Part shown: in pieces, positions 20,222 to 51,646 of the stretch
Layout of the letters: the number at the start of each line of letters is the position of its first letter
How positions within the stretch are numbered: the first letter of the stretch is position 1
Translations under genes and position numbers: made by a program
NCBI GenBank assembly: GCA_964544585.1
Contig: CAZJBV010000003.1
Location: 16,950-80,949 of the forward strand
Direction: 5' to 3'
Length of the DNA stretch: 64,000 nt
DNA from: an uncultured Gammaproteobacteria bacterium
GTDB taxonomy: Bacteria > Patescibacteriota > Microgenomatia > 2-02-FULL-39-11
The notes under the pieces: model-generated
What the model saw: only the letters and a program-made list of their open reading frames with translations
Database searches by the model: none
Told to the model about the DNA's origin: nothing

Positions 20222-20250
20222 TTGACAAGCAGGGAAGAGTGTAGTATATT
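20222..20250 (+). promoter_or_regulatory. sigma70-like promoter TTGACA-N17-TATATT
   Basis: A consensus -35 TTGACA (20222-20227) lies 17 nt from TATATT (20245-20250). It sits directly downstream of the antiporter stop. Confidence 0.5.
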
Positions 20251-20259
20251 ATTTATAAT

Positions 20260-20594
20260 TAAATATACAAAGCGTTTAAGCGGAGTCACGATCCGCGAGC
20301 TGATGGCAAAAATGCCATACGGAAGCTGAACCGTAAAAATCCAACAGACGATGTCGCGGAATCAAAGCGCTTGCACTGAGCGCAGCGAAGTGGAGTCGCC
20401 ATAAAGAGCTAAAAGCATGCAAATGTTTTTAGAATAAAGGATGGGACCGCGAGAGGTCCTTTTTTGTTGCCTCTCGTTCCTTACTCACGATTTTTCGTGG
20501 GTAGGAAACGGGAGGTTTTATTTTACGGTGGAACGTAAAATTGCAAAGCAATTAACGTTCCTACCACGTTAATTTGCGAAGCAAATTTTTACGT
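20260..20594 (+). ncRNA. structured GC-rich leader or ncRNA with four consecutive hairpins (three followed by U-runs)
   Basis: The region is locally GC-rich against an AT-rich genome. Hairpins: GGACC-GCGAGA-GGTCC+T6 (20443-20466); a 20-bp G.U-containing stem at 20470-20515 followed by T4AT4; a stem at 20527-20567; AATTTGC-GAA-GCAAATT+T5 at 20571-20590. No His-rich leader peptide is present. Confidence 0.35.
20443..20466 (+). terminator. intrinsic terminator-like hairpin plus U-tract
   Basis: GGACC GCGAGA GGTCC is followed by TTTTTT. Confidence 0.5.
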
Positions 20595-20670
20595 GGTGGT
20601 ATTAGCTCAACGGTAGAGCACTAGTTTGTGGAACTAGATGTTGCCGGTTCGAATCCGGTATACCACCCCA
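20595..20670 (+). tRNA. tRNA-His (anticodon GUG) with encoded G-1 and 3' CCA
   Basis: The cloverleaf was folded by hand. Acceptor GTGGTAT/ATACCAC is perfect. G-1 (20595) pairs C73 (20667). D stem is GCTC/GAGC. The anticodon loop TTGTGGA gives GTG. T-loop is TTCGAAT. CCA occupies 20668-20670. Confidence 0.9.
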
Positions 20671-21536
20671 TGAATAACAGAAGTCTAAAATTAGCAGTCC
20701 AAAAAGAAGGGCGTCTGACAGAAGAGACGCTGCAGTTTTTGTGGAAATCAGGTCTTGAGTTTGATAGTTTTAGGCAAAGACTTTTTTCTTCGTGCAGAAA
20801 TTTTCCCCTAGAAATCCTCTACGTCCGAGACGATGACATCACCGACTACGTTTCCCAAGGTACAGTGGACCTGGGAATAGTGGGACAAAATATATTAAAT
20901 GAAGAAAGACCCAAAGTAAAAAAACTGCTTAACCTAAGATATGGATTTTGCTCTCTTATCATTGCCGTTCCAAAGGAATCAGAAATAAAAGAGATAAAAG
21001 GATTAAAAGGAAAAAAAATCGCCACCTCATACCCCGTATCAACTAAGAAATTCCTTAGGCAAAATAATATCGAAGCTCAAATAGTGTCTATTTCAGGATC
21101 AGTAGAAATTACCCCCGCATTAGGTATAGCCCAAGCAATAGTTGACCTGACTTCAACAGGTAGCACTCTTGCCCTAAACGATCTAAAAATACTGACAAAG
21201 ATTTATGATTCCGAAGCTATTTTGATCGCAAATAAGGCATCCCTCATCAACAAGAAAAAGAATCTGTTAGAAAAATTGATAACCCGTTTTAAAGGTGTTC
21301 TTTCAGCCAAAAACTACAAATATGTCATGATGAATGCCCCAAAAGATATACTTCCAAAACTAAAAAAAATTACTCCTGGATTAAAATCTCCGACAGTTTC
21401 ACCTCTTACCAAAGAAGGATGGGTGCAAGTAAAAACCGTCATCAAAGAAGATATATTTTGGGAAACAATAGAGCGCCTTAAAAAAACCGGTGCCTCTGGA
21501 ATAATTGTTCTTCCCATAGAAAAAATGATCATCTAA
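20670..21536 (+). CDS. hisG: ATP phosphoribosyltransferase (long form)
   Basis: The N-terminus MNNRSLKLAVQKEGRL aligns with the canonical HisG N-terminus. The ATG A is the terminal A of the tRNA-His CCA. A C-terminal regulatory domain is present. Confidence 0.85.
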   Translation: MNNRSLKLAVQKEGRLTEETLQFLWKSGLEFDSFRQRLFSSCRNFPLEILYVRDDDITDYVSQGTVDLGIVGQNILNEERPKVKKLLNLRYGFCSLIIAVPKESEIKEIKGLKGKKIATSYPVSTKKFLRQNNIEAQIVSISGSVEITPALGIAQAIVDLTSTGSTLALNDLKILTKIYDSEAILIANKASLINKKKNLLEKLITRFKGVLSAKNYKYVMMNAPKDILPKLKKITPGLKSPTVSPLTKEGWVQVKTVIKEDIFWETIERLKKTGASGIIVLPIEKMII

Positions 21537-21543
21537 AAACTAT

Positions 21544-22839
21544 ATGAAAGTCATAAATCTAAAAGACTTATCAATTAAAGATAGAAACAGAATCATTAAT
21601 CGCTCATTCGGCCTGAATGCGACGCTCTTCCCCATGGTAAAAAAAACAATGGAAAAGATAAAAGTCAATGGAGATAAGGCAATTTATGAAAAATATCAAA
21701 ATAGATATGGTAAAGATCAATACAAAAACATAAGAGTAAAAAAAGATGAAATAAAAAAAGCATATGAAAATATATCCAAAGATACTTTGAAAGCTTTAAA
21801 ACAGATGATAAAAAACATTAAAGTAGTTCACAAAGCGCAGTTGCCTTCAAAGAAAGATACAATTGTCTACCCTGAAAAAGGGATAAAAGTAGAAAGAAAT
21901 TGGCGTTCTATTGAAAAAGTAGGTCTATATATTCCTGGCGGAAAAGCAATCTATCCCTCCTCAGTCTTGATGTCAGCTATTCCCGCAATTATTTCCGGCT
22001 GCAAAGAAATCATCATCTGTACTCCACCCGGAGATGAAGGAAAAATTCCATCCGCGACATTAGTTGCTGCAGATTTAGTTGGGGTAAAGAAAATATTTAA
22101 AGTCGGCGGGGCTGAAGCAATTGCTGCCATGGTCTTTGGAACAAGAGAAATACCAAAAGTATACAAAATATTCGGAGCCGGAAACGCCATTGTCACAGCC
22201 GCTAAAATGATCGCCATGGAAACTATCGCCATCGACATGCCCGCAGGACCATCGGAAATATTTATCATTGCAGACAATACTGCAAATCCCAAATTTATCG
22301 CCGCAGATCTTCTTGCCGATGGAGAACACGGGCCAGATTCTGCTTGTGTACTTCTTACAACATCAAACATTATTGCCCAAAAAGCAGTTTCGGAAATTGA
22401 AAAACAGCTAAAAAATCTATCAACACGAGAAAGAGTAAGAGAATCTTTGAAACAATACGGTCTCATTGCAGTAGTTAACTCTCTCGACGAAGCTATAAAC
22501 TTTACCAATGAATATGCGCCAGAACATCTAGAGATCATGACTAAAAACGCAAGGGAAATTGTAAATAAAATCCAAAACGCAGGATCGGTATTCATTGGGA
22601 ATTGGACTACTAAATCTGCCGGAGATTATGCCACAGGCGCCAATCACATCCTTCCTACAGGAGGCACTGCCAAAATGTATCCACCTTTAGGAGTCGACAG
22701 TTTCGGTAAGTGGATGCAGGTACAGGAATGTACAAAAGAAGGCCTGCGTACCATACGAAAAACTATTGAAACAATGGGAGACGTAGAACAATTACCAGCA
22801 CACAAAAACGCAACATCAATAAGATTTAATAATAATTAA
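21544..22839 (+). CDS. hisD: histidinol dehydrogenase
   Basis: Length 431 aa with the conserved HisD core (GPSEIF, DLLADGEHGPDS). Confidence 0.85.
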   Translation: MKVINLKDLSIKDRNRIINRSFGLNATLFPMVKKTMEKIKVNGDKAIYEKYQNRYGKDQYKNIRVKKDEIKKAYENISKDTLKALKQMIKNIKVVHKAQLPSKKDTIVYPEKGIKVERNWRSIEKVGLYIPGGKAIYPSSVLMSAIPAIISGCKEIIICTPPGDEGKIPSATLVAADLVGVKKIFKVGGAEAIAAMVFGTREIPKVYKIFGAGNAIVTAAKMIAMETIAIDMPAGPSEIFIIADNTANPKFIAADLLADGEHGPDSACVLLTTSNIIAQKAVSEIEKQLKNLSTRERVRESLKQYGLIAVVNSLDEAINFTNEYAPEHLEIMTKNAREIVNKIQNAGSVFIGNWTTKSAGDYATGANHILPTGGTAKMYPPLGVDSFGKWMQVQECTKEGLRTIRKTIETMGDVEQLPAHKNATSIRFNNN

Positions 22840-23910
22840 ATGAAAAATATTCAAAACTATTTCTCGCGAGTTGCCCAAAAAATTGAGCCTTATCAATGGG
22901 AAGAGGTGCTATCGGCAAAATCCCTGCGTTTTGATACCAACACTCCTCCCTTGCCACCAGCAAGTCTTAACCGCTTTTTAAAATCTATGGCAAAAAATTG
23001 CCCGATCAACGAATATACCGATCCTGCATACACAAAGCTTCGAGAATTAATAGCAAAATACGAAAAAGTAGAAAGCGATATGGTGACAGTCATAAATAGC
23101 GGAGATGAAGCAATAGATGTCTTGGCAAAAACATTTTTAAACCAAGGCGATATGTTTATCATTACTCCGCCAACGTATGAAATGTTTACAATCCAATGTA
23201 GTATAAACCGCGGTATTCCTCTGGAGGTACCATTGAAAAAAGAAACATTTGCTGTAGATGCAGAAAAAATAATTACAGAAAGTAAAAAACCAACAGTAAA
23301 ACTTATATTTCTCGTAAATCCCAACAATCCTAGCGCAACAATCACTCCTTTAAATACAATCGAAAAAATTGTCAAAGAGGCAAACTCAATTGTTGTCGTT
23401 GACGAAGTTTACAGAGAATTCTATGGAAAAACCGCAGTTCCCCTTTTAAAAAGATACGAAAATTTAGTAATCCTAAGAAGTTTTTCCAAATTTGCCGCAA
23501 TTGCAGGCGCCCGAGTCGGATACCTTTTAGCAAACAGTACTCTCTCGCAAAAATTTGACGCCATCCGATTTCCCATGGGTGTAAGTTTCCTTTCATACAA
23601 ACTGGCAGAATATATTTTAGAAAATGACCAAGTCTGGATGAAAAAGCAAATACAAATGGTAAAAAGAGAAAGAACGAAACTTAGTACCGACTTGCAAAAG
23701 TTAGGCTTTAAAGTCATCCCTTCAAAAGCCAATTTCGTTCTCGTCAATATGGGCAAAAAAGCAAAACAAATTTCGCAAAAGTTAAAACAAAGAAATATCA
23801 TTATTAGAGATAGAAGTAATAAGCCATATTTAAAAGGATTCGTCCGTATAACCGTACGAAGCCCAGAAGAAAATAAAAGACTCATAACAACTTTAAAGGA
23901 GATATTATGA
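22840..23910 (+). CDS. hisC: histidinol-phosphate aminotransferase
   Basis: Class II aminotransferase with NPNNPSAT and the PLP-Lys motif SFSKFAAIAG. Confidence 0.85.
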   Translation: MKNIQNYFSRVAQKIEPYQWEEVLSAKSLRFDTNTPPLPPASLNRFLKSMAKNCPINEYTDPAYTKLRELIAKYEKVESDMVTVINSGDEAIDVLAKTFLNQGDMFIITPPTYEMFTIQCSINRGIPLEVPLKKETFAVDAEKIITESKKPTVKLIFLVNPNNPSATITPLNTIEKIVKEANSIVVVDEVYREFYGKTAVPLLKRYENLVILRSFSKFAAIAGARVGYLLANSTLSQKFDAIRFPMGVSFLSYKLAEYILENDQVWMKKQIQMVKRERTKLSTDLQKLGFKVIPSKANFVLVNMGKKAKQISQKLKQRNIIIRDRSNKPYLKGFVRITVRSPEENKRLITTLKEIL

Positions 23911-24740
23911 AAAAAATATTCTTGTTTGATTATCATGTCCAAGCTCTAGCCCACGAAAGAGGAAGTAAGTTAAGAATAGAAGAAACAATAGAATCTGCCA
24001 TCGAAAAAGGATTATCTGCAATCTGTCTTACAGATCACTTTCCCCTGCCGTCAGATTTTACTGATCTGACAAAAGATGTCAGAGTCAAATATCCAGGGTA
24101 CGTCGATAAAGTTATCAGCGCTAAAGAAAAATATAAGAATGATATCGAAGTTTTATTAGGCGCAGAGTTTGACTGGCTTTCCAGTTATGAGGAATGGATA
24201 GAAAACGCAGAGAAGCAATATCCATTCGATTATGTAATCGGTTCAGTACATTTTTTAGATAATATTCCTATCGATTATACAAAAGAATATTTTGTCAAGG
24301 CGATAAAAACATATGGTGGTATCAAAAGTCTAATCACAAAATATTATGAGAATGTTCGCAAAGTTTCTATCTCGAACTTATTTGATAGTATCGGCCACTT
24401 AGACAGAATTAAAGTATTCAACGACGGAAATTTCTTTTCCGAAAAAGTGGATTGGTACCGAATGGAAGTTTTAAAAACTTTAGATGTCATCGCAAAATAT
24501 ACAAAAACTATCGAAGTAAACACTGCGGGACTTAATAGGGTATGCCAATCAACATATCCAAGTCTTTGGATTTTAAAAGAGGCAAAGAAAAGAGGGATAA
24601 ATCTGACCCTCGGCTCGGATGCGCACTTTCCCCAAAAAGTCGGCAGAAATTTAGATATTGCGGTAAGTTTAGCCAAACAAGCAGGATTCACGTCTTTAGT
24701 AAGATTCAAAAATAGAACAAAAATCGAGGTAAAAATATGA
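23907..24740 (+). CDS. hisK: histidinol-phosphatase, PHP family
   Basis: PHP metal-binding motifs TDHFP, GSVHF and GSDAHFP are present. It sits between hisC and hisB. Confidence 0.75.
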   Translation: MKKIFLFDYHVQALAHERGSKLRIEETIESAIEKGLSAICLTDHFPLPSDFTDLTKDVRVKYPGYVDKVISAKEKYKNDIEVLLGAEFDWLSSYEEWIENAEKQYPFDYVIGSVHFLDNIPIDYTKEYFVKAIKTYGGIKSLITKYYENVRKVSISNLFDSIGHLDRIKVFNDGNFFSEKVDWYRMEVLKTLDVIAKYTKTIEVNTAGLNRVCQSTYPSLWILKEAKKRGINLTLGSDAHFPQKVGRNLDIAVSLAKQAGFTSLVRFKNRTKIEVKI

Positions 24741-25327
24741 AAAGAACAGCAAAAGTGGAAAGAAAAACAAAAGAAACAGACATAAAAATAAAACTAAATA
24801 TCGATGGCGAAGGAAATTATTCCATAGATACTCCTATTGGATTTTTAAACCACATGCTCGAGCTTTTTGTCAAACACGGTTTATTTGATCTCGAGATAGT
24901 TACAAAAGGAGATATCAAAGTCGACGAACACCACACCGTCGAAGATATCGGCATTATCTTGGGAAAAGTATTTGCAAAAGCCCTAAATGACAAAAAGGGT
25001 ATTAATCGTTATGGATTTTTTATCCTTCCCATGGATGAATCGCTCATCACAGCTGCATGTGATTTATCTGGAAGAATTTATTTTCGTTTAGATTGCGAAT
25101 TTAAAAGAGAAAAAGTAGGAGATCTTCCTACAGAACTTGTCTATGATTTTTGGGACGCTTTTGCCAAAAATGCAAATATCAGTTTGCAAATAAAGGAAGA
25201 ATTCGGCCGAAACGATCACCACAAAATCGAAGGAATTTTCAAGTCCGTCGCCCGAGCTCTTCACATAGCCTGTGATTTTGATGAAAGAATAAAGGGTCAA
25301 ATTCCCTCAACGAAAGGAGTCCTATGA
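24737..25327 (+). CDS. hisB: imidazoleglycerol-phosphate dehydratase
   Basis: Motifs IDTPIGFLNHML and VDEHHTVEDIGI are present. Confidence 0.9.
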   Translation: MKRTAKVERKTKETDIKIKLNIDGEGNYSIDTPIGFLNHMLELFVKHGLFDLEIVTKGDIKVDEHHTVEDIGIILGKVFAKALNDKKGINRYGFFILPMDESLITAACDLSGRIYFRLDCEFKREKVGDLPTELVYDFWDAFAKNANISLQIKEEFGRNDHHKIEGIFKSVARALHIACDFDERIKGQIPSTKGVL

Positions 25328-25947
25328 TTGGAATTTTGGATTACAAAATCGGAAATGTTGGGAGCGTTGCAAATGCCTTAACAAAGCTAAATATTCCCTT
25401 TGTTTTAACAAGCGATAAAACTGTTCTAGAAAAAACTACCGCTCTCATCCTTCCTGGCGTCGGATCAGCAAACCAAGGAATGGAAAATCTTATAAAGCTG
25501 GAATTAAAGAATTTTCTCATAGACCAAATAAAGTCAGGAAAGCCATTTTTGGGAATTTGTCTTGGCATGCAACTTCTATTTGATAATAGCGAGGAAGGAA
25601 ATACAAAATGCCTCGGGGTTCTTAGAGGCAAAGTAAAAAAATTTAGAAAAGAGGAAAAAATCCCACAAATCGGCTGGAATAAAGTAGAACCAATGGATAA
25701 ATATTTTTATTTCGTCAATAGTTATTATTGCGAACCAGAAGACAAATCAATCATCGCTGGTAAGACAAAATATGGCGAAGAATTTGCCAGCATCATTAAA
25801 TATAAAAATATTTTTGCCACCCAGTTTCACCCTGAAAAAAGCGGAAAAGATGGCTTTCAACTATTAAAAGATTGGACAAGACACCTCCGAGGTGACCCAA
25901 AGGGACTCCTCGGATGGTGGAGGAATCAGGAAAAAGTAATATGTTAA
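25324..25947 (+). CDS. hisH: imidazole glycerol phosphate synthase, glutamine amidotransferase subunit
   Basis: The class I GATase Cys sits in GICLGMQLL, followed by the His-Glu pair FHPEKS. Confidence 0.85.
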
Positions 25948-26699
25948 CAAAACGAATTATTCCTTGCCTTGATATGACTCAAGGAAAAGTAGTTAAGGGC
26001 ATACAATTTGTCTCATTTCGCGATGCCGGCGACCCAGTAAAACTTGCAAAAATATATGACCAACAGGATGCAGACGAGCTTGTGTTTTTAGACATAACGG
26101 CAACAGTAGAAAACCGACCCATACTTCTTGATGTCGTGAGACGCACAGCAAAGGAAGTCACAATTCCTTTCTCGGTTGGCGGAGGAATAAGAACAGTCGA
26201 AGATATGCGCATGATTCTTCGCGCTGGTGCTGATAAAGTTTCGGTCAATACTGGAGCACTCAAAAATCCAAAACTTATTTCTGATTGCGCCAAAGAATTT
26301 GGCAGCCAGTGTGTTGTTCTTTCCATGGATGTAAAAAAAATAAGTGCTAGCCGCTGGAATGTATTTATAAATGGAGGAAGAACCGATACTGGGATGGATG
26401 CAGTTTCCTGGGCAAAAAGTGCAACTCGCTTAGGTGCCGGAGAAATACTTCTTACGTCAATTGATAGCGATGGCACCAAAAATGGATTCGACGTCGAATT
26501 GACAAAACGTGTATCAAACGCCGTGACCGTTCCAGTCATTGCCTCCGGAGGAGCAGGAAAACTTGAAGATTTTTATTCCGTGCTAACAAAAGGGAAAGCA
26601 GATGCGGCTCTTGCCGCATCTCTTTTTCACTTTAAAGAGTTAACCATCCAAAAAGTAAAAGATTATTTAAAAGTTAAAAACATTTCAATTAGAAATTAA
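25941..26699 (+). CDS. hisF: imidazole glycerol phosphate synthase cyclase subunit
   Basis: The N-terminus [11 protein letters not shown] is the HisF type. GGGIR and IASGGAG are present. The ATG at 25941 overlaps the hisH stop. Confidence 0.85.
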
Positions 26700-26700
26700 T

Positions 26701-26991
26701 ATGAAATTAATTCCAACAATCATTCAAGAGGAAAAATCAGGAGAAGTGCTTATGCTTGGATATATGAATGATAAGTCTTTGAAGCTTACAAAAGGCACAG
26801 GTTATGTATATTTTTGGAGCAGAAAAAGAAAAAAACTCTGGAAAAAAGGAGAATCATCTGGAAATACGTTAAAAGTAAAAAGTCTATCAAGCGACTGTGA
26901 TAATGACACTTTACTTATAAAAGTAGACTCACAGGACAAAAATATTTGTCACAAAGGGACACGATCATGTTTTAATTATGAAATTAAATAA
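26701..26991 (+). CDS. hisI: phosphoribosyl-AMP cyclohydrolase
   Basis: Sequence GYMNDKSL...YFWSRKRKKLWKKGESSGN plus a Cys/His zinc site is present. Confidence 0.85.
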   Translation: MKLIPTIIQEEKSGEVLMLGYMNDKSLKLTKGTGYVYFWSRKRKKLWKKGESSGNTLKVKSLSSDCDNDTLLIKVDSQDKNICHKGTRSCFNYEIK

Positions 26992-27259
26992 ACTATATTC
27001 AATCATCGAGAAGCGCAAAAAAGGGTTGCCAAAAAACTCATATACTGCAAACATTTTTCGAGCTGGAAAAGACAAAATCATCCAAAAAGTAGGCGAGGAG
27101 GCAGTAGAGGTCATTATTGCTGCCAAAAATAGTGATAAAAAGGCACTGATTTCCGAACTCGCCGATTTGCAATATCATCTATTAGTCTTACTATCCCAAT
27201 GTAGTATCACTCCAGAAGATATAGAAGAGGAATTAGAGAAAAGAATGAAAAAACTATGA
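26978..27259 (+). CDS. hisE: phosphoribosyl-ATP pyrophosphatase
   Basis: The MazG-like motif EEAVEVIIAAKN...ELADLQYHLLVLL is present. Confidence 0.8.
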   Translation: MKLNKLYSIIEKRKKGLPKNSYTANIFRAGKDKIIQKVGEEAVEVIIAAKNSDKKALISELADLQYHLLVLLSQCSITPEDIEEELEKRMKKL

Positions 27260-41997: not shown

Positions 41998-42358
41998 TTA
42001 ATAACTCCTTCTAGAAACACTTGACGAATATATAAGTCTAGTGTTTCTTGAACCCGCCTAAGATCGCTCTTCGAGCCGCGCTACGAATAGTAGGTAAGGC
42101 GAGAAGTAAGATCAGGCGGATAAAAACATTTAATAAAAATTAAATAAATAAAACTGCCTAAATGAGAAATTATTTGAAGAAGTTGAAAAGATATTCAAAG
42201 AAAATTTAGGAAATCTTTACTTACTAAAAACGAAAATCAAATTTAAACAGATTTACATATTCAAAATCTGTAAAACATATTATACCACATCCAACTCCCA
42301 AAGACAATGCAGTGATACTGCACGATTAATACGGTCCAAAAGGTTTATAATATAGATA

Positions 42359-47840: not shown

Positions 47841-48190
47841 AAAAGTTCAATAGACAAACAGGACTTCTTGCAGAAAAATTTGCTGCCGACGCATTAAAGG
47901 AAAAAGGATATCAAATTCTTGCTCAAAATTTTTCCAATAGATACGGAGAAATAGATATCATCGCTAAAGATAAAAATGTTTTAGTCTTTGTCGAAGTCAA
48001 AGCAAAAATTGGTACCGACTTCGGCATTCCAGAAGAAATGATAAACCCCAGCAAATTACAGCGCATCCGCAATATGGGCTTGATCTATATGAAAGATAAA
48101 TCTCTTCCTTGTAGGATTGACGTTGTTGCGGTAATTCTCAGTGAGTCAAATACACTCATTCGCCTGACTCATTATGAAAATGTCTACTAA
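47837..48190 (+). CDS. yraN: YraN-family (UPF0102) endonuclease
   Basis: PD-(D/E)xK-like motifs EIDII and VEVKAK are present. It follows comM, as in many genomes. Confidence 0.7.
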   Translation: MKKFNRQTGLLAEKFAADALKEKGYQILAQNFSNRYGEIDIIAKDKNVLVFVEVKAKIGTDFGIPEEMINPSKLQRIRNMGLIYMKDKSLPCRIDVVAVILSESNTLIRLTHYENVY

Positions 48191-51500: not shown

Positions 51501-51563
51501 TGAGGAAGTATTATAGTGCAGCGGAGGTCGTAGACAAAATAATATTCCAACAATCCTCTTCAG

Positions 51564-51646
51564 TGCCGGGACCAGGATTCGAACCTGGGAAGGCGTGAGC
51601 CACATGATTTACAGTCATGCCCTGTTGGCCGCTTAGGTATCCCGGC
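51564..51646 (-). tRNA. tRNA-Tyr (anticodon GUA), type II long variable arm, CCA not encoded
   Basis: The cloverleaf was folded by hand from the reverse complement. Acceptor GCCGGGA/TCCCGGC is perfect. The anticodon stem CATGA/TCATG closes loop CTGTAAA. The variable arm is 14 nt (GGC-tcac-GCC). T-arm is CCAGG-TTCGAAT-CCTGG. The discriminator is A. Confidence 0.9.

Follow-up and report, generated by a model that had tools for sequence, protein, structure and literature searches.

What becomes of a transcript in which the last nucleotide of a tRNA is also the first nucleotide of a start codon? This question is raised by a stretch of 64,000 nucleotides (nt) from an uncultured bacterium (contig CAZJBV010000003.1, positions 16,950 to 80,949 of the forward strand; "the window" is this whole stretch), in which a tRNA-His gene stands immediately before hisG, the first gene of a histidine biosynthesis operon. 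The original prediction for this locus saw a regulatory trade-off: exact maturation of the tRNA would take the A of the hisG start codon with it, each transcript would therefore give either tRNA or protein, and this choice would replace the classical leader-peptide attenuator. Our analysis points to a different answer. Judged by its sequence, the operon is headed by a His-specific T-box riboswitch directly upstream of tRNA-His, and the association of tRNA-His with a histidine attenuator recurs in dozens of related loci. On balance, we judge it probable that one T-box-controlled transcript serves both ends, in that excision of the tRNA would leave a nearly leaderless hisG mRNA and would add to the supply of the T-box's own ligand.

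The elements on which the argument turns are these, in their order along the window.

20222..20250, + strand: sigma-70-type promoter of the whole unit, TTGACA-17 nt-TATATT, with 11 of 12 consensus matches
20266..20524, + strand: His T-box leader of the candidate phyla radiation (CPR) type, with short stem I, stem II, IIA, stem III, T-box core, antiterminator and terminator
20280..20296, + strand: stem I hairpin GCGGA-GUCACGA-UCCGC, with the specifier CAC at 20287-20289 in the 7-nt terminal loop
20437..20455, + strand: T-box core AAGGAUGGGACCGCGAGAG (also AAGGAUGGGACCGCG), with the UGGG bulge at 20442-20445
20443..20465, + strand: short hairpin GGACC-GCGAGA-GGUCC followed by U6, inside the antiterminator loop and flagged as terminator-like
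20469..20524, + strand: intrinsic terminator, a 21-bp hairpin at 20469-20516 followed by UUUAUUUU (-32.7 kcal/mol, z = -7.1)
20526..20594, + strand: structured pre-tRNA spacer with two hairpins (minimum-free-energy fold in context, z = -4.1)
20595..20670, + strand: tRNA-His with G-1, C73, anticodon GUG, canonical D and T loops, and CCA at positions 74-76
20670..21536, + strand: hisG, a long-form ATP phosphoribosyltransferase of 288 amino acids (open reading frame, Pfam matches, N-terminus alignment)

A His T-box riboswitch heads the operon

The roughly 330 nt upstream of the tRNA hold a T-box region that standard annotation passes over. The Rfam T-box model RF00230 aligns at 20266-20484 with 40.8 bits (E 6e-7), below its gathering score of 93 and only with lax filters; the whole-window Rfam scan did not report it, and most sister leaders have no match to the model at E < 0.1. 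The region begins behind the only + strand promoter-like site between the end of the upstream gene (20216) and hisG, namely 20222-20250, and the leaders of sister loci are headed by the same layout, TTGACA-N16-17-TAnnnT.

What makes this leader specific for histidine? Its specifier, CAC, is a His codon and is complementary to the GUG anticodon of tRNA-His; the loop sequence GUCACG is invariant across the loci, and the stem that carries it covaries (CUGGA/UCCAG, GUGGA/UCCAC, CCGAA/UUCGG and others). At the other end of the leader, the UGGG bulge is complementary to the C73-C-C-A end of tRNA-His and is predicted to pair with the uncharged tRNA. The core that contains it has a single match in the window, where chance would give 0, and in 137 of the 138 cores of the loci the fourth bulge base is G, which complements C73. 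The terminator 5' arm (20470-20482, CCUCUCGUUCCUU) doubles as the 3' strand of the antiterminator, an alternative fold of -17.4 kcal/mol that is mutually exclusive with the terminator, and this alternative pairing is kept in 37 of 37 aligned leaders.

These 37 non-redundant homologous leaders, aligned over six helices, also supply the covariation evidence. Compensatory changes occur in 21 of 34 pairs; paired cells amount to 95.6% (78.6% in shuffles); and the alignment has a covariation score of 0.496, compared with 0.162 for shuffled alignments and no more than 0.14 when the pairing partners are slid, with 0 of 500 shuffles reaching the observed values. The antiterminator pairs are invariant but carry little information, their 5' strand having been prescribed by the scan pattern.

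The leader departs from the familiar T-box plan in two respects. Stem I is a 5-bp hairpin in place of a long stem with a distal platform (the Rfam alignment places 8 nt where the model has 75 positions), and we envisage it as a 5-bp helix on a K-turn-like base, topped by the 7-nt loop in which CAC would be presented. The second departure is the inner hairpin with its U6, whose 5' arm overlaps the UGGG bulge. It is kept in nearly all sister T-boxes, in variants (GGACC/GGUCC, GACCGC/GCGGUC, CCGC/GCGG) that are each followed by a U-run, and may act as an early pause or terminator in competition with tRNA 3'-end binding; we speculate that such a pause could give a platform-less T-box time to capture its tRNA. 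As to the mode of action, no sequestrator helix that hides a Shine-Dalgarno sequence, the mark of the translational class II, was found; the window has a hairpin and U-tract 75 nt before the tRNA. We regard the CPR T-boxes that combine a minimal stem I with a terminator, on these sequence features, as a distinct class. In two loci that carry no tRNA (L003 and L006), the 3' arm of the terminator reads GGGAGG and could also serve as a Shine-Dalgarno sequence.

The original prediction had stated that a His leader-peptide attenuator is missing here, and in this it was correct: between 20217 and 20595 the open reading frame list holds no His-rich leader, and the Rfam scan gave no His-leader match. 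The accompanying proposal that the tRNA takes the attenuator's place does not survive the T-box and terminator at 20266-20524, since the T-box is the obvious histidine sensor and no replacement regulator is needed. Neither further His T-boxes nor other riboswitches turned up in the window in the Rfam and core-pattern scans.

The tRNA and the hisG start codon

Are both genes at the junction what they appear to be? For the tRNA, ARAGORN calls tRNA-His(GTG) at 20596-20670, and Rfam RF00005 matches 20596-20667 with 69 bits, above the tRNA gathering score of 29. Read directly, G-1 is 20595, C73 is 20667, C74 and C75 are 20668-20669, and A76 is 20670. The acceptor stem is GTGGTAT/ATACCAC, the anticodon loop is TTGTGGA, and the elbow has GG in the D-loop and TTCGAAT as its T-loop; the reading and the tRNA alignment agree on a genome-encoded G-1 opposite C73. 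This is the canonical tRNA-His ending at 20670 that had been predicted.

For hisG, the ATG at 20670-20672 shares its A with tRNA position 76, and the frame that it opens begins MNNRSLKLAVQKEGRL, runs for 288 amino acids, and ends at 21536. Matches to Pfam PF01634 (HisG, 173.7 bits) and PF08029 (HisG_C, the C-terminal regulatory domain, 102.2 bits) mark the long form of the enzyme, the N-terminus aligns with about 40 relatives (e.g., MADLNNKNLKLAIQKQGRL and MKKFNNGNLKLAIQKEGRL), and a public gene call (GCA_016186845.1, JACPKX010000017.1) has the identical start, so the overlap described earlier is one with a true HisG N-terminus. Two other starts were rejected: the in-frame GTG at 20628 falls within the tRNA, and the next in-frame candidate, TTG at codon 24, would delete the conserved LKLAVQKEGRL N-terminus. 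The HisG relatives found in species-representative genomes all belong to the CPR/Patescibacteria, mostly to the Microgenomates (Roizman-, Gottesman- and Woesebacteria).

No Shine-Dalgarno-like motif is seen upstream of the hisG ATG, in keeping with the earlier remark that the sequence leaves no room for a ribosome-binding site outside the tRNA acceptor/T arm. The junction, C73-CC-AUG, has what tRNA punctuation calls for, namely an AUG no more than a few nt from where the tRNA ends and no Shine-Dalgarno sequence.

A probable single transcription unit

If the T-box is to govern hisG, the tRNA between them must lie in the same transcript. A scan of the window found neither a promoter-like nor a terminator-like site between the T-box terminator and hisG, and no + strand internal promoter for the tRNA or hisG anywhere in 20251-20670. 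In at least 11 unique sister loci, G-1 of the tRNA lies 0-5 nt past the terminator U-tract (...gggaggtttttttgGTGG...), and in L012 the tRNA likewise starts right past a leader-peptide terminator. Such spacing leaves no room for a promoter, and the tRNA would be transcribed by terminator read-through. We infer that tRNA-His and the his operon almost certainly form one transcription unit, which bears out the physical and transcriptional fusion first proposed from the window; a separate promoter for hisG, or a start codon further downstream, finds no place in the scan or in the alignment that rejected the TTG.

The attenuator and tRNA-His travel together

Is this layout an accident of one genome? 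T-boxes of the same class were collected by a metagenome scan with the 19-nt core (at least 120 contigs), from genome loci, and from the window, at least 136 in all. Among the 136 listed, 40 have a same-strand tRNA, called by ARAGORN, at most a few hundred nt downstream, and in all 40 it is tRNA-His; three more tRNA-His-like elements that ARAGORN missed (L025, L027, L059) and a truncated copy in L107 were recognised by eye or script. The fusion that the original prediction wanted sought in related genomes is therefore present in dozens of loci.

Upstream of the HisG relatives, the leader is either the same T-box or, in sister lineages, a His leader peptide (with HH, or HHHH in L011) followed by terminators. 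tRNA-His lies between T-box and hisG in L001, L007, L013, L016 and L017, and behind a leader-peptide attenuator in L009, L011 and L012, which ties the tRNA to histidine-responsive attenuation in general. The related loci, 943 kb in all, contain 43 tRNA-His genes, every one of them behind a histidine attenuator, and no other tRNA type is so placed. An unlinked second copy of tRNA-His was not found in these 943 kb, where only about 0.5 would be expected.

The T-box itself is not confined to hisG. It also fronts a HisZ/HisRS-like gene, M15 and M20 peptidases, a SLOG protein, a PNP-family gene, racemase-like proteins, and several families without a Pfam match, and some contigs hold two His T-box operons; T-boxes of other amino-acid specificity are not present in the fetched loci. 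Six loci (L028, L034, L037, L038, L078, L132) carry two near-identical His T-boxes about 3.5 kb apart on opposite strands, one in front of hisG and the other in front of an M15 (D-Ala-D-Ala dipeptidase-like) gene, and the near-identity of the paired leaders suggests that within-genome copies are homogenised. In six others (L048, L109, L057, L074, L082, L087), the first open reading frame after T-box and tRNA-His has no Pfam match; these six frames, which the layout puts under the control of histidine, appear mutually related, share a CP(G/A)-type motif and a C-terminal ..AEG/AQG.. region, and mostly have the abutting C73-CNU-AUG junction.

Two further observations concern the RNA between attenuator and gene. 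At L017:2800-2960, a complete tRNA-His with CCA is nested at the anticodon-loop position of a second tRNA-His-like gene, the outer one reading GGTGGCATTAGCTCAATGGTAGAGCGTCCCGAT[inner tRNA]ATCGGGAATGTTGGCGGTTCAAATCCGCTATGCCACCCAG. A recurrent structured element of about 70 nt is seen at window 42050-42121 and in L004, L009, L010, L067, L070, L084, L088 and L091. Some copies separate a histidine attenuator from the tRNA or hisG, others lie within the antiterminator loop of a T-box, and the one in the window is intergenic. Its outer helix covaries (AACCCGCC..GGCGGAU; AAUCCUCCU..AGGAGGAU; ACCCCG..CGGGGU) around a conserved core ..UCGCUCUUYGAGCCGCR-hairpin-AAGGCGA.., and it has no Rfam match; its RNAalifold analysis used nine copies, which aligned poorly.

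A rule for the junction

How far is it from the tRNA to the next start codon? A downstream open reading frame could be read in 30 of the 36 unique T-box loci that carry a tRNA, and in these 30 the distance from the discriminator base to the start is bimodal: 2-3 nt in 10 of the 30 and 13-26 nt in 13. Ten such short gaps out of 30 have a binomial P of about 2e-8 against a uniform spread over 0-60 nt. The two groups also differ in their Shine-Dalgarno motifs. All ten abutting starts are ATG and none has a Shine-Dalgarno motif, whereas such a motif (AGGAGG, GGGGG) is present in 11 of the 13 loci with the longer gaps. The abutting junctions read C73-CNU-AUG in L016, L036, L048, L057, L062, L074, L082 and L105 and C73-CU-AUG in L109; L070, which ends at its contig end, has C73-CCU-AUG. 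With five acceptor-stem types and, besides hisG, several unrelated downstream genes in the class, the layout is not a single inherited accident.

The window is the sole member of the abutting class that reads CCA, the others having CCU, CAU, CUU or CU. The encoded CCA of the original prediction is present as letters, but since the other abutting loci read CNU or CU, we judge that in the window these letters are probably C74 and C75 plus the A of the AUG, as though a CCU-AUG junction had lost one base. Encoded CCA is missing elsewhere too: it is absent from the window's only other tRNA gene (Tyr), from 23 of the 36 T-box-linked tRNA-His genes, and from 9 of 21 other tRNAs of the loci. The tRNA-Tyr and the 23 tRNA-His genes argue that, in this lineage, cleavage near position 73 and subsequent addition of CCA are obligatory. 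The C73-CNU-AUG sister loci would require the same, and the same cut would keep the window's AUG: cleavage after C73 or C74 would leave 5'-CCAUG or 5'-CAUG, with the start codon intact. The claim that processing and translation exclude each other depends on a cut after A76, and the sister loci make it doubtful. Every tRNA gene examined, in the loci and at window 51563-51646, has C at position 74, with or without an encoded CCA (CAA, CTA, CAT, CTG, CCT), which hints that the 3' cleavage may fall after C74 or that only CA is added.

Could such an mRNA be translated at all? Seven sister loci speak to this point. Upstream of hisG in L005, L010, L011, L014, L015, L018 and L020, the ATG of a leader peptide with two His codons (four in L011) follows a consensus -10 box at a distance of 6-12 nt, which in four of these loci is exactly 6 nt. 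Leader peptides so close to the -10 box would be read from leaderless mRNAs, which suggests that the lineage can translate such messages.

Proposed mechanism

In total, these observations are consistent with the following model. A single promoter at 20222-20250 would drive the His T-box leader, tRNA-His, and hisGDC-(PHP)-BHFIE. When histidine runs short, uncharged tRNA-His would accumulate and allow read-through of the terminator at 20469-20524. In the read-through transcript, RNase P would cleave 5' of G-1, and an RNase Z-type endonuclease would cleave at or just after C73, with the CCA then completed or added. The same 3' cut would free a hisG mRNA with a mere 1-2 nt ahead of its AUG, to be translated in the leaderless mode. 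In this model, the tRNA has two jobs. As a punctuation mark, it would have the structured leader removed and would set the 5' end of the mRNA; as a product, made only under histidine limitation, it would provide extra T-box ligand and a substrate for translation. Newly made tRNA-His is uncharged, and we posit that it would act both as T-box ligand and as a catcher of scarce histidine, closing a feed-forward loop; in a genome with several His T-box operons, this would make the response of all of them sharper. Why should the tRNA always be tRNA-His? A bare processing signal could be any tRNA, and its constant identity needs an explanation of its own; the strict match between tRNA and attenuator specificity suggests that co-induction of tRNA-His is itself under selection.

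Several observations weigh against this model. All abutting loci have C74, which is unfavourable for an RNase Z of the Bacillus type. In Bacillus subtilis, CCA, and C74 and C75 especially, blocks RNase Z, and exonucleases trim such precursors; trimming of this kind in the window would destroy the hisG start. The nearest relatives of the window tRNA (L091 and L118) encode CCA, and the CCA of the window might be real. If this were the sole tRNA-His gene, a terminator that can be passed only with the help of its own uncharged product would pose a bootstrapping problem. L107 fits poorly as well. It has a truncated tRNA-His (5' acceptor strand, D arm, anticodon arm) followed by the TT-ATG of hisG, with no Shine-Dalgarno sequence before that ATG; it looks like a deletion derivative of an L025-type locus, and because a half-tRNA is not an RNase Z substrate, it is at odds with an obligatory RNase Z step. 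Lastly, the elbows of L001, L016, L025, L027, L059, L048 and L109 are non-canonical, and tRNAs so altered need not all be ordinary translation tRNAs. In the first five, the T-loop reads AGCRUUA and the D-loop lacks GG, with G-1, C73 and GUG intact; ARAGORN misses three of the five. A T-box without an elbow-binding platform would not notice such changes, and the altered tRNAs could be sensor tRNAs, or equally the elbow could have been rebuilt by compensating changes. RNase Z (HxHxDH) and CCA-adding enzyme (GGxVRD) motifs are absent from the open reading frames of the window, which is uninformative for a 64-kb piece of a genome.

The spacer before the tRNA adds a further structural element. Its middle strand CCUACCACGU (20560-20569) has two alternative pairing partners: GGUGGAACGU, which lies upstream, and ACGUGGUGG at 20591-20599, the tRNA's own 5' acceptor strand, which the predicted fold could sequester. 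The same spacer hairpin, ctaccacgttaattt..aaattttacgtgGTGG, precedes the tRNA in L067, where the upstream helix has compensatory changes, giving two examples only.

Can the same facts be read in other ways? If the CCA were truly encoded and the 3' end lay at A76, whether reached exactly or by exonucleolytic trimming back, a transcript would yield mature tRNA-His or hisG mRNA and never both, and the partition itself would be the regulatory trade-off that was first proposed. The letters do overlap the ATG, L091 and L118 continue from their CCA into other bases, and CCA is encoded by about half of the tRNA genes for other amino acids in related loci, so that a maturation route for such precursors must exist in these lineages. 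We nonetheless hold this reading to be unlikely. The T-box already senses histidine; the nine other loci with 2-3 nt gaps, together with L070, read CNU or CU, from which the window differs by one base; the window's tRNA-Tyr lacks CCA; and if each matured tRNA destroyed the start of the first cistron, transcript would be wasted just when the histidine enzymes are needed. Punctuation seems the more parsimonious account and, for the junctions compared here, the likelier one.

It is comparably improbable, in our estimate, that the tRNA or tRNA-like element stays on the message as a structured 5' cap, a stabiliser or an aid to ribosome entry independent of a Shine-Dalgarno sequence, and that the chimera is translated as such. 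The altered elbows of L001, L016, L025, L027 and L059 would suit a structural role, as would the half-tRNA of L107, still directly before the hisG ATG, and a spacer able to sequester the 5' acceptor strand in the window. However, a tRNA folded 0-3 nt before the AUG would occupy the upstream space that the 30S subunit needs, a mere stabiliser would have no need of the GUG, G-1 and C73 that even degenerate copies keep, and the tRNA of the window is fully canonical. Least probable by far, to the point that we give it very little weight, is plain genome compaction, in which an independent housekeeping tRNA-His has come to overlap hisG by accident and hisG uses another start or promoter. CPR genomes are compact and gene overlaps in them are common, and the spacer at 20525-20594 is long enough for a promoter; yet no promoter-like site is found in it, the tRNA starts at the terminator U-tract in many relatives, all 43 tRNA-His genes in the 943 kb sit behind a histidine attenuator, the spacing is far from random (P about 2e-8), and a start at TTG codon 24 would cost HisG its conserved N-terminus. 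The model of T-box control with tRNA punctuation therefore remains the one we prefer. Its extension to the group is a more tentative matter, and we put it forward as a real possibility, somewhat short of probable: that the CPR have a transcriptional T-box class with minimal stem I, about one-third of whose members drive their own ligand, tRNA-His, and that this tRNA serves as punctuation under a C73-CNU-AUG junction rule.

Relation to known systems

T-box riboswitches, tRNA-mRNA co-transcripts, and leaderless mRNAs are each known kinds of element; what appears to be new, as far as we have found, is a CPR class that joins a minimal stem I to a terminator, a T-box that drives the gene of its own ligand, and a conserved tRNA-AUG junction that would imply tRNA punctuation in bacteria. 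With the T-boxes of RF00230 (Bacillus tyrS/glyQS), the window leader shares specifier-anticodon pairing, a UGGN bulge for the uncharged NCCA end, mutually exclusive antiterminator and terminator helices, stems II, IIA and III, and the control of amino-acid genes. It differs from them in its short stem I with a 7-nt terminal specifier loop and no elbow-binding distal platform, in the extra hairpin and U6 within the antiterminator loop, in its CPR/Patescibacteria host, and in that the regulated unit of its class often begins with the ligand tRNA's own gene.

An ultrashort stem I without an elbow platform is also found in the actinobacterial ileS-type T-boxes of the translational class II, in which recognition relies on the anticodon and the acceptor end (PMC7583486). 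These actinobacterial leaders work at the level of translation, by hiding a Shine-Dalgarno sequence, whereas in the window the short stem I is combined with a strong intrinsic terminator. As a rule, transcriptional T-boxes depend on the platform of a long stem I, and short forms are typical of translational, actinobacterial T-boxes (PMC7583486); the T-box database TBDB applied its short-stem-I model in Actinobacteria only (PMC7778990).

The closest analogy for the junction is mitochondrial tRNA punctuation, in which RNase P and RNase Z release leaderless mRNAs and in which, as here, the tRNA lies 0-3 nt from the start codon with no ribosome-binding site. The window differs in being bacterial, in having the tRNA at the head of a riboswitch-controlled operon, and in matching tRNA identity to the regulator; its cleavage is predicted. 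In the searchable literature, tRNA punctuation is represented by mitochondrial examples only, a Streptomyces transcriptome study holds nothing on tRNA-derived leaderless mRNAs, and we found no publication that links T-boxes to CPR/Patescibacteria or that describes either a tRNA gene controlled by a T-box or tRNA punctuation in bacteria.

Other bacterial precedents share single parts of the design. In Escherichia coli, the tRNAs of thrU-tyrU-glyT-thrT-tufB are co-transcribed upstream of a protein gene and released by processing. The window has the same order of tRNA and open reading frame in what is almost certainly one transcript, with release by processing proposed; the tufB operon, for its part, has a Shine-Dalgarno spacer, no match between tRNA and gene function, and no upstream attenuator. 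In Salmonella, the hisL attenuator and hisR (tRNA-His) make the output of the his operon depend on tRNA-His charging, from which the window differs by a predicted direct contact between leader RNA and tRNA and by having the tRNA-His gene inside the operon. The T-box leader of B. subtilis thrS is reportedly processed from the read-through transcript, and the met leader of Staphylococcus aureus is said to be cleaved by RNase III. The likeness is that a leader is cut from the read-through mRNA, whose fate is thereby changed; in the window, the signal would be an embedded tRNA handled by the enzymes of tRNA maturation.

The rest of the operon and a neighbouring element

Behind hisG, the operon continues as follows (21544..27259, + strand, from Pfam matches and open reading frames).

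21544-22839, + strand: hisD
22840-23910, + strand: hisC
23907-24740, + strand: PHP-type histidinol phosphatase
24737-25327, + strand: hisB
25324-25947, + strand: hisH
25914-26699, + strand: hisF
26701-26991, + strand: hisI
26978-27259, + strand: hisE

The order is hisG-D-C-PHP-B-H-F-I-E (20670-27259), with hisI and hisE as separate genes; the operon in the window has a single His_biosynth-family gene and no hisA. Within hisG itself, 40 nt into the gene, a hairpin and U-run that resemble a terminator (GGCGTCTGACAGAAGAGACGCT GCAGTTTTTG) lie at 20710-20740 over the codons for the conserved GRLTEETLQFL, and are probably incidental. Elsewhere, a sub-threshold Rfam match to a ribosomal S15 leader (29.3 bits against 39.5, E 0.008) falls at window 47924-48034, in or beside a small open reading frame.

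Implications

The minimal stem I of the window element challenges the rule that transcriptional T-boxes have a long one. There is also a practical point: pipelines that apply Rfam thresholds miss this class and ARAGORN misses some of the linked tRNAs, so that regulation in the Patescibacteria, almost unstudied as it is, is under-annotated. The C73-CNU-AUG junction, in turn, offers a test case for bacterial leaderless mRNA made by processing, one that would tie tRNA maturation to translation initiation as in mitochondria.

The T-box is the textbook RNA sensor of tRNA charging. If the model is true, its occurrence in front of tRNA-His would add a feed-forward, or positive-feedback, layer to starvation control, and the locus would represent the first bacterial counterpart of mitochondrial tRNA punctuation, under a riboswitch with positive feedback on its own ligand.

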